DNA of 64,000 nt, taken from the sequence record PQ356294.1, one strand, 5' to 3'. The notes under the pieces were generated by a model. That model was not told the DNA's origin and made no database searches. It saw only the letters and a list, made by a program, of their open reading frames with translations. The translations under genes were made by a program, and so were the position numbers. The DNA comes from Escherichia phage Ec_YwIITB1. How positions within the stretch are numbered: the first letter of the stretch is position 1; each line of letters opens with the position of its first letter. Below, one piece after another: positions 11,347 to 51,795 of the stretch.

Positions 11347-12908
11347 ATGACTATCAAAACTAAAGCTGAACTTTTGAACAAATGGAAGCCATTACTGGAA
11401 GGTGAAGGTTTACCGGAAATTGCTAATAGCAAACAAGCGATTATCGCTAAAATCTTTGAAAACCAGGAAAAAGATTTCCAGACAGCTCCAGAGTACAAAG
11501 ACGAAAAAATCGCCCAGGCGTTCGGTTCTTTCTTAACAGAAGCTGAAATCGGTGGTGACCACGGTTACAACGCTACTAACATTGCTGCTGGTCAGACTTC
11601 TGGCGCAGTAACTCAGATTGGCCCAGCTGTTATGGGTATGGTACGTCGTGCTATTCCTAACCTGATTGCTTTCGATATTTGCGGTGTTCAGCCGATGAAT
11701 AGCCCGACTGGCCAGGTATTTGCACTGCGTGCAGTATATGGTAAAGACCCAATCGCTGCTGATGCTAAAGAAGCATTCCACCCAATGTATGGTCCAGATG
11801 CAATGTTCTCTGGTCAGGGTGCTGCTAAGAAATTCGCGCTAGCACACAAACTACTGTAAGTTGGAACCATTTACACCTATTTCTTCCAGGAAACTGGTAC
11901 TGTATATCTGCAAGCTACCTCTAGTTAAAGCAAATTGATACAAGTGCTTCTGACGCAGCTAAATTAGATGCTGAAATTAAGAAACAAATGGAAGCTGGCG
12001 TATTGGTAGAAATCGCTGAAGGTATGGCTACTTCTATCGCTGAACTTCAGGAAGGTTTCAACGGTTCTACCGATAACCCATGGAATGAAATGGGATTCCG
12101 TATCGATAAACAAGTTATCGAAGCTAAATCTCGTCAGCTGAAAGCTGCTTACTCTATCGAATTAGCACAAGACCTCCGCGCTGTTCACGGTATGGATGCT
12201 GATGCTGAACTGTCTGGTATTCTGGCTACCGAAATCATGCTGGAAATCAACCGTGAAGTTGTTGATTGGATTAACTACTCAGCTCAGGTTGGTAAATCTG
12301 GTATGACCCTGACTCCGGGTTCTAAAGCTGGTGTATTTGACTTCCAGGATCCGATTGATATTCGCGGTGCTCGCTGGGCAGGTGAATCCTTTAAAGCTCT
12401 GTTGTTCCAGATTGACAAAGAAGCAGTTGAAATTGCTCGTCAGACCGGTCGTGGTGAAGGTAACTTCATTATCGCTTCCCGTAACGTAGTTAACGTTCTG
12501 GCTTCAGTTGATACTGGCATTTCTTATGCTGCACAGGGTCTGGCTACCGGCTTTAACACTGATACTACCAAGTCAGTATTTGCTGGTGTTCTGGGTGGTA
12601 AATACCGTGTATACATCGACCAGTATGCTAAACAGGATTATTTCACTGTAGGTTATAAAGGTCCGAACGAAATGGATGCTGGTATTTACTACGCTCCATA
12701 TGTAGCTCTGACTCCGCTGCGTGGTTCCGATCCGAAGAACTTCCAACCGGTAATGGGATTCAAAACTCGTTACGGTATCGGTATCAACCCATTTGCAGAA
12801 TCCGCTGCTCAGGCTCCGGCTTCTCGCATCCAAAGCGGTATGCCTTCTATTCTTAATAGCCTTGGTAAAAACGCTTACTTCCGCCGTGTATATGTTAAAG
12901 GTATCTAA
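11347..12908 (+). CDS. 23: major capsid protein gp23; reading frame interrupted between ~11836 and ~11930
   Basis: 170-aa ORF 11347-11859 matches gp23 N-terminus, 306-aa ORF 11988-12908 matches C-terminus; in-frame stops at 11857 and 11926 with three frame changes between. Confidence 0.85.
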
Positions 12909-15601: not shown

Positions 15602-15799
15602 TCACCTTTTATTAATATGTCTTTTTCTATAGACAACTTTTTCTCGAGTTTCAAATTTATTCTTAGCAGTCATAGCTCGAGCCCATAATACAGCCACTTC
15701 TTTCGCCTGTAAGTTCAATTCACGAGCAATTTCAATGAATGACTTTCCAGACTCATGAAGAGTAAACACCACAACCTCAGTTCTCATAATCAATCTCAT
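15602..15799 (-). CDS. hypothetical protein (24.3-like position)
   Basis: 65-aa ORF. Confidence 0.55.
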   Translation of the reverse strand: MRLIMRTEVVVFTLHESGKSFIEIARELNLQAKEVAVLWARAMTAKNKFETREKVVYRKRHINKR

Positions 15800-15894: not shown

Positions 15895-17324
15895 TTATGG
15901 ATAGGTATAGATGATACCAGTTTCTAAAGCAGTTTTATGAATGATGTATCCATTGCGTGATTCTTGAACATCAACTTCTGGATAGTCTTTCATCATCTTC
16001 TGAAGAGTGTAACGATGCAGGTAGTATTTACTGTCTGGATCTTCAGTTTTCCAATCTTTACCTTCTTCGGTCATTTTTTGGATTTCATCCATAACCCACC
16101 AGCCGCACCAGATATAAGCCGAAGTACGATGTGGAAGAGGATGAACATAAGGCAATTCACCTTCTGGTTCCGGAGCAACTTTATCAGTTACCTGAACTTG
16201 GCCTGTTGCTTTAACTGTTTTACTATCATAGTCGGTTGCTGTAACGACAGCAGTAACTTCAATAGTTTGACTTCCAATAGATGAGGTGTCAACGGTGTAT
16301 ACATTAGTTGACCCTTCTACAGGAGAAGAATCTTTCTTCCATGAATAAGTAATTTGAGCTGCTTCAGGTGCTCCGTGACATTAGCCGTAAATGTAGCCGA
16401 AGCATCTTGCTGAACGTTAATAGAAGGAGGAGTCAATGTAACCTGTGGATTCATTGTCTTCTTATTAACTGTCAATGATACTTCATTAGAAGTAACTTCC
16501 TTTGCATCATAATTTTCAGCCGTTACTTGGGCTACACACTTAACTGTTTTAGCTCCAACTGTGGTAGGAGTATAGTTAAATGTAGTAGTAGTTTCTCCAT
16601 CGACCAGAGAACCGTCAACATACCACTGATACGTAGCAGACGCTCCTGGTGGCTGTGAAGCCAAGGTAGCAGTAAATTGAACTGGGGTTCCAATAACTCC
16701 TGCTGGAGGATTAGCAGGAGTTACGGCTAACGTAGTTGTCTGTGTTTTCTTATTAACAGTCAGTGACACTTCATTAGAAGTAACTTCCTTTGCATCATAA
16801 TCTGTCGCGGTTACTTGAGCTACACACTTAATTGTTTTAACTCCGCTTGCGTCAGGAGTGTAATTGAATGTAGTGCCAGTTGCTTCGCCCACAGGAGAAC
16901 CGTCAACGTGCCATTGATACGTAGCGTTTGCACTTGGTGGCTGTGAAGCTAAGGCAGCGGTAAATTCAATTGGAGTTCCAATCACTCCAGCATCAGGGCT
17001 ACCAGGAGTTACAGCTAAAATAGTTGTTTGTGTCTTATTTTGAACCGTGATAGTTGTCGTAGTTTCTGCTGTTTCAGGTTCAGGTTCAGATTCAGATTCT
17101 GGAACTGTATTTGTTGCAACGACTTTAATAGTCTTTTGACCTGCAGGTCCTTTTAATACATAGCCAAAAGTTGCCGCTTCTCCATCTTGCGGAACATTAT
17201 CTACACTCCAAGCATAGGTAATAGTTCCATCTCCAGTTTCACCACTGGGTGTAGCAGTAAACTGCTTGGTTTCATCAATAACTCCTGTTGGGGTTTTAGG
17301 AGTTATATCAACTGTAAAAGTCAT
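15895..17324 (-). CDS. hoc: Hoc outer capsid protein with extra tandem Ig-like domain; frameshifted near 16371-16375
   Basis: 335-aa ORF 16317-17324 (starts MTFTVDITPKT) plus 86-aa ORF 15895-16155 matching the Hoc C-terminus (ends GIIYTYP); alternate frame between them reads the expected Hoc sequence. Confidence 0.85.
16464..17039 (-). repeat. tandem in-frame duplication (~288 bp unit) encoding two Ig-like domains within hoc
   Basis: Two consecutive ~96-aa blocks (ILAVTPGSPDAGVIGTPIEFTA... and TLAVTPANPPAGVIGTPVQFTA...) with matching DNA repeat; boundaries approximate. Confidence 0.7.
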
Positions 17325-45861: not shown

Positions 45862-47036
45862 TTAAAAATATTTTTTAAAACTCATCATAACTTTATCATC
45901 AACATCATTATCAATCTGTGCTACAAGATAAGATGACAGTTCTACTTCTTGCGGCGCGGATTGAACATTATCAGAATTAAGATATTCACGAATCCAAGGA
46001 TACGGGTGTTTAACCGGAGCATCGGTAATTGGGCATGGAAGACCACACTGTTTCATACGAGATACAGTTAAGTAATCAATAAAGTTCCACATGCTATTTG
46101 TATTTAATCCAGGAACATCGCCATCTTTAAATAAATGAACTGCCCAGTCTTTTTCTTGGCGGTTAACTTCCATGAAAATATCAACTGCTTCTTGTTCACA
46201 CTCTTGGGCGATTTTAACCCATTCATCACCATCAGTGCCAAGTTGAAGTTGACGAATAATATATTGGGTGCCTTTAAGGTGAAGCTGTTCATCACGTGCA
46301 ATGAACTTCATAATCTTGGCATTACCTTCCATGATTTCCATGTTTTTATGGAAGTTAAAGGTACATGCGAAAGATACGTAAAAACGAATAGCTTCCAGTG
46401 CGTTGATTACATGCAGACAAAGGTAAAGAGAACGCATTAGTTCACGTTTCCAATACATTTCATGCTCTATGGCATCTTTAATATCATCTTCGTCTGCGTT
46501 AATTTCTTTTTGGTACTCAATATCAGCTTTAGCATTCTGCCACGAGTTTTCTCAATAACATCATCATAGTAACGACCAATAGATTCAGCACGTTTCATGA
46601 TAGCTTTATCTAATACAATCTCATCAAATACTTTTGACGGATCAGTATAAAGATTCCGCATGATATGAGTGTATGAACGACTGTGAATAGTTTCGCTAAA
46701 AGTCCATGTAGCAACCCATGTATCAAGGCTTGGGTCTGAAATTAACGACATAAGTACAGCAGACGGTGCACGACCCTGAATGCTATCCAAAAGTGATTGA
46801 TACTTCAGGTTATTAGTAAAAATATCTTGCTGATACTGAGGAAGCTTGTTAAATTGTGCAGCATCCATCATCAAGTTTACTTCTTCAGGACGCCAGAAAA
46901 ATGACAACTGCTTTTCGGTTAAATCTTCAAAAACTTTATGGCGTTGAATATCATAACGCGCAATACCAAGACCTGAACCGAAGAACATAGGTTCTTTTAA
47001 AACATCAACTGGATTTGTATTAAAAACTGTGCTCAT
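45862..47036 (-). CDS. nrdB: ribonucleotide reductase small subunit NrdB, intron-less; frameshifted near 46539-46546
   Basis: 189-aa ORF 46467-47036 (N-terminus) and 198-aa ORF 45862-46458 (C-terminus) in different frames, 8 nt apart; alternate frame reads through the junction. Confidence 0.85.
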
Positions 47037-47087
47037 AAATTTTCCGCTTAGTTAATAGATAGTGACTCATCCGTGAGTCAAATTATA

Positions 47088-49352
47088 TCATAATTTACAG
47101 GATGAACAATCTTCAGCTTTTGGAGTTTCTATTTCATAATCATCAGTACCAGAACCGTCACGGGTATTATGATAATAGAAATTTTTTCCGCCAAAATACC
47201 AAAAATACAAAAGGTCATCAATCATTATTGACATTGGAACCTTTCCTTTTGGAAAAATCTGCGGGTCATAATATGTATTCGCTGAAGCTGATTGACACAC
47301 CCATTTCAGCATAATAGCTACTTGCGTAAGATAAGGTTTATTGCCTTTCTTAGCTAATTTCCATGTATAATCATAGAGGTCTATGTTGTGCTCAATATTG
47401 GGCACGACTTGATTAAAGGAGCCCTCTTTTGATTCTTTAACAGAGACTGGTCCACGTGGAGGCTCGATACCGTTTGTACTGTTAGAAACTTGGGAAGATG
47501 ACTCACATGGCATAAGTGCTGATAATGTGCTATTACGGATGCCAAAGAGCTTAAGGTCTTCCCGCAGCGACGACCAGTCACAAACGTATTTTGGAGCTGC
47601 GATTTGGTCAATCTTTTTATTGTACCAGTCGATAGGTAATTCGCCTCGAGACCAACGAGTGTCTGAATAATATTCGCAAGGTCCTTTTTCTTTGGCGAGC
47701 TTAATGGATGCTTTAATGAGTCCATACTGTAGTCTCTCAAATAGTTCATGTGTTAAATCGTTAGCATCTTCATAAGAAGCAAAATTACTTGCCAGCCAAG
47801 CTGCATAGTTAGTAACACCTACGCCAAGGTTTCGACGTTTTTTAGCTTTTTCTGCTTCAGGAACTGGATATCCTTGGTAATCCAAAAGATTATCAAGAGC
47901 ACGAACTTGGACTTCTGCCAATTCATTAATTTTATCTTGGTCTTGCCAATCGAAGTTATCTAACACAAATGCAGATAACGTACACAATCCAATTTCAGCA
48001 TCAGGACTATTCACATCATTTGTTGGAATAGCAATTTCACAACACAAGTTGCTCTGACGAATAGGTGCCTTTTCACGAATAAACGGAGTATAGTTATTCG
48101 TATTATCTATGAACTGTACATAAATCCTTGCTGTTCCTGAGCGTTCAGTCATGAGCAATTCAAACAGTTCACGGGCTTTAATACGCTTTTTACGAATATT
48201 AGGGTCTTTTTCTGCAGCTTCATATAATTCACGGAAACGGTCTTGGTCTTTAAAATAAGAATAGTAAAGTTCGCCACCCATTTCATGCGGACTGAACAAA
48301 GTAATGTAATCATTCTTTCCAAATCGTTCCATCATCAAATCATTCAGCTGGACGCCATAATCCATATGACGGATACGGTTTTCTTCTACACCTTTGTTAT
48401 TTTTCAAAACGAGAAGATTTTCAACTTCCAAATGCCAAATAGGATAATAAGCAGTAGCAGCGCCGCCACGAATTCCACCCTGTGAGCATGATTTAACAGC
48501 AGTTTGAAAATGTTTCCAAAAAGGAATAACACCAGTATGACGTACTTCACCTGTGCCAATCTTAGAACCTTCGGCACGAATCATACCAACGTTAATACCA
48601 ATTCCAGCGCGTTTGGAGATATACTCAACAATTGAAGCGGAAGCCTTATTGATAGACTTTAATGAATCACCTGCCTCAATAACAACGCATGAACTAAACT
48701 GCCGAGTTGGAGTACGGCAACCAGCCATAATAGGGGTTGGCAGTGAAATCTGTCGAGTAGATACTGCTTCATAAAAACGAATAACGTGTTTTAATCTATC
48801 AACAGGTTCATCTTGATGCAATGCCATTCCAATAGTCATAAATGCAAACTGTGGAGTTTCATAAATTTGACCAGTGGTTTTATCTTTAACTAGATATTTT
48901 TCTTTTAATTGCATCGCCCCGGAATAAGTAAATTCCATATCCCGTTCGTGCTTAATTTTTGATTCTAAAAATGTAATTTCTTCTGCTGAATATTTTGACA
49001 ACAATTCAGGGTCGTATTTACCTTCATTTACACAGTAAGAAATATGGTCAATAAATGAACGTGGTTCATACTGCCCGTAAACATGCTTACGAAGAGCGAA
49101 CATTAAGCAGCGTGCAGCTACATATTGATAATCAGGCTCTTCAACTGAAATAGAATTCGCAGCAGCCTTAATTACAATGGTTTGAATGTCATCAGTTGTC
49201 ATTCCATCACGGAGATATGATTTAATATTTTCATATAATTCATAAGGATCTACAGATGTTCCTTCAGCTGCCCAAGATAAAACTTTAATAATTTTTTGTG
49301 GGTCAAAGCTCTGAGAAACACCACTACTTTTGATAACATTAATTAATTGCAT
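47088..49352 (-). CDS. nrdA: ribonucleotide reductase large subunit NrdA
   Basis: 754-aa ORF; T4 homolog. Confidence 0.95.
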   Translation of the reverse strand: MQLINVIKSSGVSQSFDPQKIIKVLSWAAEGTSVDPYELYENIKSYLRDGMTTDDIQTIVIKAAANSISVEEPDYQYVAARCLMFALRKHVYGQYEPRSFIDHISYCVNEGKYDPELLSKYSAEEITFLESKIKHERDMEFTYSGAMQLKEKYLVKDKTTGQIYETPQFAFMTIGMALHQDEPVDRLKHVIRFYEAVSTRQISLPTPIMAGCRTPTRQFSSCVVIEAGDSLKSINKASASIVEYISKRAGIGINVGMIRAEGSKIGTGEVRHTGVIPFWKHFQTAVKSCSQGGIRGGAATAYYPIWHLEVENLLVLKNNKGVEENRIRHMDYGVQLNDLMMERFGKNDYITLFSPHEMGGELYYSYFKDQDRFRELYEAAEKDPNIRKKRIKARELFELLMTERSGTARIYVQFIDNTNNYTPFIREKAPIRQSNLCCEIAIPTNDVNSPDAEIGLCTLSAFVLDNFDWQDQDKINELAEVQVRALDNLLDYQGYPVPEAEKAKKRRNLGVGVTNYAAWLASNFASYEDANDLTHELFERLQYGLIKASIKLAKEKGPCEYYSDTRWSRGELPIDWYNKKIDQIAAPKYVCDWSSLREDLKLFGIRNSTLSALMPCESSSQVSNSTNGIEPPRGPVSVKESKEGSFNQVVPNIEHNIDLYDYTWKLAKKGNKPYLTQVAIMLKWVCQSASANTYYDPQIFPKGKVPMSIMIDDLLYFWYFGGKNFYYHNTRDGSGTDDYEIETPKAEDCSSCKL

Positions 49353-49909: not shown

Positions 49910-50769
49910 TTACACCGCCATCTTTCCTTTAATTGGCGGGTGAGATACATAGTTGTTAAGAACAAAATTATGCGGCTTTGCGAATTGACTCAACCAAAAT
50001 ACCTGCGATTCTGTGTCCCATTCATCAAATTCATCTGGAAATTTTAATTGTAATTCGCATAAATCCATAGGTTCACGACGCAAAATTTCTTTACATTGTT
50101 CTACGTGATTCATATAGATATGAGTATTACCACCAGAAAATATCAAATCTCCTGGAATAAGTTTACACATCTTAGCTACAATATGAACTAACGTAGCATA
50201 TGATGCAATATTAAATGGAAGACCGAGGAAAACATCTACCGAACGTTGATACCACTGCAAATCCAAATAGCCATTACGCACATTAAATTGATAGAACATA
50301 TGACAAGGTGGTAATGCCATTTGCTTGAGTTCAGCTGGATTCCATGCTGAAACAATTTGACGTCTATCATTTGGCAGTTTTTTAATACGATCAACAACTT
50401 CTATAATTTGGTCTACACCACCAAAATCGCGCCACTGTTTTCCATAAATTGGACCAAGTTCACCACTATGGTATCCTAAATCTTTTGCTTGATTTTCGTA
50501 ATTTTCATCCCAGACTGTTTTGCCTTGAATTAATGAATCATGTTGAATTAATCGCAAATCATTGACATTTGTGCTTCCCGATAAAAACCATATTAGCTCA
50601 GCAATGCAAGCTTTCCAGGCAAGCTTCTTAGTCGTTACTGCAGGAAAACCTTTAGTTAAATCCCAGCGTAATTTAGTACCGAACAAAGCAATTGTTCCTG
50701 TGCCTGTTCGGTCATCGGTTTCGTAACCATTTTCCAGGATATCTTTAATTAAAAATTGGTATTGTTTCA

Positions 50770-50770
<1 letters not shown>
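49910..50770 (-). CDS. td: thymidylate synthase Td, intron-less
   Basis: Continuous ORF; start MKQYQF at 50770 overlaps upstream stop (TAATG); ORF also open to ATG 50782. Confidence 0.9.

Positions 50771-51795
<1,025 letters not shown>

Follow-up and report, generated by a model that had tools for sequence, protein, structure and literature searches.

Gene arrangement of the nrdA-nrdB-denA block

The stretch of 64,000 nt from Escherichia phage Ec_YwIITB1 (PQ356294.1) that we analysed, referred to here as the window, is a segment of a Tequatrovirus (T-even) genome that reaches from the genes for head and tail to those for the long tail fibres. Its top matches are T2/pSs-1-like phages, at 96–98% DNA identity. 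The genes near nrdB lie on the minus strand and comprise alc, rnlA, denA, nrdB, nrdA, nrdA.1, nrdA.2, td and frd. This is a standard T2-type nrdA-nrdB-denA block. Phage T2 (e.g. MH751506) shows the same gene order, the same 51-nt spacer between nrdA and nrdB, and likewise no intron and no mobE, while its nrdB shares 96.3% DNA identity with the nrdB of the window. The difference is that T2 nrdB is a single intact ORF of 392 aa, whereas in the window the gene is 4 nt short at nt 494 and reads as two ORFs.

The nrdA gene (47088–49352, minus strand) is intact and encodes 754 aa, according to both the ORF list and protein mapping. Exactly this NrdA protein is indexed in 162 collection blocks, and 24 contigs were examined. 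The stop codon of nrdA lies at 47088 and the ATG of nrdB at 47036, which leaves a spacer of 51 nt (47037–47087, minus strand), as the earlier note on this DNA had counted, without coding capacity for mobE. Within the spacer, a perfect hairpin of 7 bp whose loop is CGGA (TGACTCA-CGGA-TGAGTCA; 47063–47080, minus strand) was flagged as terminator-like, but its fold was no better than that of shuffled sequence (z = −1.2). Published work describes mobE-less phages as having no terminator in the nrdA-nrdB spacer.

The nrdB gene as a whole runs from 47036 to 45862 on the minus strand, and was rightly described before as two ORFs 8 nt apart (47036–46467 and 46458–45862). The N-terminal ORF (46467–47036, minus strand) encodes 189 aa. 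Its residues 1–165 are authentic NrdB, including the FSETIHSRSY motif, with 97.6% amino acid identity to residues 1–165 of pSs-1 NrdB, while its final 24 residues (GRMLKLILSTKKKLTQTKMILKMP) are out of frame. The C-terminal reading frame (45862–46551, minus strand, given as the limits of the open frame) is open from 46551 and has its first ATG at 46458, from which an ORF of 198 aa extends to 45862. This frame encodes ...WQNAKADIEYQ... to ...SFKKYF, holds the iron-ligand motifs ALEAIRFY and ARDEQLHL, and is 99.6% identical to residues 167–392 of pSs-1 NrdB at the protein level.

Homology to R2, the beta subunit of class Ia ribonucleotide reductase (RNR; PF00268), is full-length only across both ORFs together; the orthologous T2 NrdB matches E. 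coli R2 over residues 3–388 (E = 3e-127). The di-iron ligands and the radical tyrosine are not all found on a single polypeptide in the window, since FSETIHSRSY lies in the 189-aa ORF and ALEAIRFY and ARDEQLHL lie in the 198-aa ORF. The break thus parts the motif equivalent to E115/H118/Y122 from the motifs equivalent to E204/E238/H241. Neither product could form a di-iron site, and nrdB as written is a pseudogene.

The intron-less and mobE-less state of nrdB

The locus of phage T4 (NC_000866) consists of nrdA, mobE, nrdB.1 and an nrdB gene with an exon 1 of 664 nt and a group I intron of 598 nt that contains a defective I-TevIII. The window shares with T4 the orthologous nrdA, nrdB and denA genes as well as the conserved exon sequence flanking the intron insertion site. 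Unlike T4, it has no intron, I-TevIII, mobE or nrdB.1, and it carries a different allele of a variable cassette within nrdB. In direct alignment, the window is colinear with the intron-less nrdB of T2 and continuous across the T4 intron insertion site. The empty site lies between 46365 and 46364 (...TTCGCAT|GTACC...), and together with the I-TevIII cut positions 14–16 bp upstream it occupies 46364–46381 on the minus strand.

Sequence searches of the whole 64-kb window point in the same direction. The T4 nrdB intron (blastn) and I-TevIII (tblastn) yielded only chance matches, with E ≥ 0.03. Searches with the nrdB.1-mobE segment and the td intron (blastn) and with I-TevI (tblastn) also returned chance matches only, and T4 MobE (tblastn) had no match at E ≤ 1. 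The statement that nrdB is intron-less is therefore upheld, with the T4 exons contiguous and no intron or I-TevIII sequence anywhere in the window, and the absence of a flanking mobE is borne out by the 51-nt spacer and the empty MobE search. A scan for group I introns at the Rfam gathering threshold was empty on the window, but equally so on a T4 control (NC_000866, 134000–146000). Because it also missed the td and nrdB introns of T4, we did not count its negative result on the window, and relied on the alignment and BLAST searches. More generally, because scans at this threshold overlook the two T4 group I introns, in td and nrdB, that contain ORFs, their negatives are unusable for excluding introns of this kind. 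The thymidylate synthase gene td (49910–50770, minus strand) is intron-less too; its T4 exons are contiguous at 50222/50221 and I-TevI is absent.

Among phage records, the junction at the insertion site was uninterrupted in 326 of the 328 that matched, and most of the T4 nrdB intron is present in 118 phage records. The nrdA-nrdB junction was uninterrupted in 373 of 494 matching phage records and split in the remainder, and the split records that were listed have an annotated homing endonuclease at the junction. Hence, an intron-less and mobE-less nrdB is the majority state in sequenced Tequatroviruses. It is the ordinary and already described T2 state, with nothing peculiar to Ec_YwIITB1.

The earlier note also called the locus a potential homing target, which agrees with published work. 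In T2 nrdB, the nicks made by MobE map to nt 122–126, where codon 42 is AAG (PMC2790892). By alignment with T2, the counterpart of the polymorphic MobE target (nrdB nt 114–131) lies at 46906–46923 on the minus strand, with the nick positions at 46915–46911. The window is identical to T2 over nt 101–164. It thus carries the MobE-sensitive allele as defined in T2, that is, nt 114–131 with AAG as codon 42, beside the block coding for the conserved FFWRPEE; over codons 38–44 it has the MobE-sensitive sequence of T2, in contrast to the MobE-resistant sequence of T4. Given a target identical to that of T2 (PMC2790892), nrdB of the window would be expected to be open to MobE, although a MobE-sensitive, intron-less nrdB has been known for T2 since the work of Wilson and Edgell (2009). 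I-TevIII cuts at positions −14 and −16 from the nrdB intron insertion site (PMC1865063). Compared with the homing site of T4, the window differs at positions −2, −5 and −14. At −14, one of the two mapped cut positions, the window has C, where both T4 and T2 have T, and this base may influence the action of I-TevIII.

Size and position of the frame break

The frame of nrdB changes between 46543 and 46542 (minus strand), within the region around 46539–46546 where the earlier note had placed it. The same note took the defect to be a break of 1 nt, repairable by one missing T. Our alignments do not support this size, because at this point the window lacks 4 nt relative to every relative examined. 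Across the break the window reads ACTCGTGGCAG (46538–46548), or ACTCG|TGGCAG, where relatives have ACTAGATATTGGCAG, ACTCGCTATTGGCAG, ACTCGTTATTGGGAA and ACTCGTGAATGGGAA. The gene measures 1175 nt in the window versus 1179 nt in KFS-EC3, T2, BECP11 and pSs-1, and in a search with 301 nt around the break all full-length matches listed span 305 nt. An extra codon between Arg and Trp was present in 13 of 13 aligned relatives and in two IMG/VR loci (L007 and L008). The alleles at this position are ACT AGA TAT TGG CAG in the T2 type, ACT CGC TAT TGG CAG in the two IMG/VR loci, ACT CGT TAT TGG GAA in locus L020, and ACT/ACC CGT GAA TGG GAA in UGKSEcP2 and T4. Thus 4 nt are missing in the window, which shifts the frame by a net −1. 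Insertion of a single T does restore the frame, but yields the peptide ...KTRWQN..., which lacks the Tyr or Glu found in all relatives and the residue that E. coli R2 likewise has at this position (S-Y-W), and the protein repaired in this way would be one residue shorter than that of any relative.

The break is located at the left edge of a hypervariable cassette of ~105 nt (46437–46546, minus strand; limits approximate), which aligns with residues ~160–196 of E. coli R2. The window carries the T2-type allele of this cassette. Alignment columns 501–600 are identical to KFS-EC3 and to loci L016 and L015, and show one mismatch with T2. Among ten contigs with a 100% identical 754-aa NrdA we found at least four unrelated, mutually unalignable cassette alleles, and T4 nrdB represents a fifth. 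In all ten contigs (among loci L012–L021) nrdB is intact, at 389 or 392 aa; these ten are included in the general result that every relative examined encodes an intact NrdB of 389–392 aa. Possibly, the break marks the junction of a swapped cassette, in which a T2-type cassette entered a UGKSEcP2-like backbone. Such a swap is not required, because phage sb1 already joins the T2-type cassette to the right flank of the window, and we retain it only as a possibility. The dihydrofolate reductase gene frd has a similar internal cassette, at ~51180–51290 of the window.

Origin of the frame break

The nrdB break is probably an artefact of the deposited sequence or of its assembly, a technical cause that we infer from the other defects in the window. 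Mapping of 82 pSs-1 proteins onto the window revealed five frame disruptions unique to the window, in nrdB, gp23, hoc, frd and a small ORF; the 77 other proteins each align in a single frame, nearly all with 95–100% identity. The major capsid gene gp23 (11347–12908, plus strand) is not intact. Its ORF stops at 11857–11859, and within ~90 nt (11837–11925) there are at least three frame switches plus in-frame stops, in a patch that is a fine-scale mix of UGKSEcP1-type and pSs-1-type alleles. The hoc gene (15898–17324, minus strand) has a 1-nt deletion at 16371, which separates the N-terminal part from the ~160 residues at the C-terminus. In frd (50973–51553, minus strand) a clean deletion of 4 nt (TCTG) at ~51224 equals the nrdB defect in size. 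An ORF of 61 aa of the DUF2774 type (15602–15799, minus strand) has lost 1 nt from a run of T at ~15606, and hence has an altered C-terminus compared to pSs-1. In frd we also observed, 27 nt upstream of the deletion, a G>T change unique to the window; it converts GGCGAC to GTCGAC, which is a SalI site, and replaces Gly with Val.

A sequence or assembly error leads among the explanations because there are five of these window-unique breaks and one of them affects an essential gene, that of the major capsid protein. With gp23 as written the phage would not be viable, and for this reason the window sequence certainly holds errors. The breaks in gp23, nrdB and frd all fall within locally hypervariable patches, which is where consensus calling is most error-prone, and this counts in favour of an artefact. 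The consensus may have been mis-called or mis-assembled in a patch of sharply diverging T-even alleles, which would have split nrdB.

This reading is in line with the lack of any independent copy of the break. The nrdB junction 28-mer did not occur in IMG/VR or in the contigs of JGI metagenomes and GTDB genomes, no identical record was found in phage, plasmid or E. coli collections, and no truncated NrdB product is on record. Similarly, the frd and hoc deficits were seen in none of the relatives among the matches listed in local searches, the gp23 and frd junction k-mers were absent from IMG/VR, and there is no record of truncated gp23 or Hoc products. Furthermore, the codons of nrdB differ from those of KFS-EC3, the nearest intact gene, by 18 synonymous to 2 non-synonymous substitutions, spread across both halves. 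This ratio implies that the break either arose very recently or does not exist in the phage; purifying selection acted on nrdB until essentially the present. No decay is seen beyond the break, as the downstream half retains 99.6% protein identity to pSs-1.

Several observations speak against an artefact. Base-level accuracy is otherwise high, with differences from relatives that are overwhelmingly synonymous, and only one of the five lesions lies in a homopolymer context. To our knowledge, sequencing platforms do not typically produce clean 4-nt deletions. In laboratory T4 nrdB, frd and hoc are dispensable, and real knockouts of these three are thus biologically possible. A review calls nrdB essential (PMC2988022).

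The main alternative is that the 4-nt deletion is a genuine and very recent inactivating mutation, by which the phage lost the small subunit of its RNR. According to this explanation, which we consider possible but rather doubtful, dihydrofolate reductase would be lost as well, owing to the 4-nt deletion in frd, which is just as clean, and the phage would rely on the enzymes of its host. Two clean deletions of equal size in two genes of one dNTP-synthesis block would fit with such a loss, the flanks of both deletions are otherwise error-free, and in T4 both genes are non-essential on normal hosts. The deletion may then stem from imprecise recombination or repair at the cassette boundary: the nrdB break falls exactly within the 6-nt stretch in which the allele class switches, and a microhomology of 1–2 nt would be available if the ancestor read CG-TGAA-TGG or CG-TTAT-TGG. 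Yet, the deletion occurs in no relative and in no contig of four collections, selection downstream of the break is not relaxed, and the non-viable gp23 in the same sequence means that errors are certainly present. Moreover, it would be extraordinary for a natural isolate to have acquired five independent lesions recently within 64 kb.

A more specific version, in which the nrdB and frd deletions are both real and arose by imprecise, register-shifted repair or recombination inside the hypervariable cassettes of a natural T2-like phage, is less probable still. Type II topoisomerase-mediated deletions with a 4-bp stagger, as in the T4 acridine frameshift literature, are one conceivable mechanism.

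It is highly unlikely that the break is the repair scar of an attack by a homing endonuclease (MobE, I-TevIII or Hef) on an endonuclease-free allele. The nrdB gene is a known target of all three enzymes (PMC2988022), and the window does carry the MobE-sensitive sequence of T2. However, the break (nrdB nt 494) lies 370 nt downstream of the MobE nick (nt 122–126) and ~165 nt upstream of the I-TevIII cuts (−14/−16 from the insertion site at nt 672), and these distances to the MobE and I-TevIII sites are the reason why we do not regard it as a homing scar. In addition, the window shows no co-conversion tract of donor type and has gained neither the intron nor mobE.

Least probable of all, with hardly any chance of being correct, is that the split is functional, either through a programmed −1 ribosomal frameshift or through two polypeptides that assemble into an active R2. 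The two frames overlap by 85 nt and a near-slippery C_AAA_AAG is present at nrdB nt 525, but the overlap contains no X_XXY_YYZ heptamer, the downstream structure is weak (−5.3 kcal/mol, starting 20 nt past C_AAA_AAG), and a frameshift there would swap the conserved WQNAKADIEYQ for out-of-frame residues. A precedent for a fragmented yet functional RNR subunit does exist in the T4-related Aeromonas phage Aeh1, where the nrdA gene is reported to form two consecutive ORFs because it was split by an inserted mobE, and its halves to have evolved to assemble (PMC3045599). The nrdB halves of the window, unlike those of Aeh1 nrdA, are 8 nt apart with no mobile element or other insert between them, and the N-terminal fragment ends in a nonsense tail of 24 residues. 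The ligand motifs are parted between the halves, the sole Shine-Dalgarno candidate for the C-terminal ATG is a GAG at −10, and the arrangement is conserved in none of the relatives examined, each of which encodes one continuous ORF. We therefore rejected a programmed frameshift or functional split for lack of a slippery heptamer, a strong hairpin, a good Shine-Dalgarno sequence and conservation.

The locus has little biological weight, as an intron-less, mobE-less nrdB open to attack by MobE was described for T2 in 2009. The practical value of the break is that of a quality flag on the window sequence: because there are at least five unique frame breaks, with the major capsid gene among them, no pseudogene call made from this sequence is trustworthy without reads. 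If register-shifted exchange did produce the deletions, this would suggest that the cassettes are active and error-prone exchange sites in the otherwise conserved nucleotide-metabolism genes of T-even phages. If the nrdB and frd deletions are real, they would be a minor case from nature in which T-even phages lose genes for dNTP synthesis.
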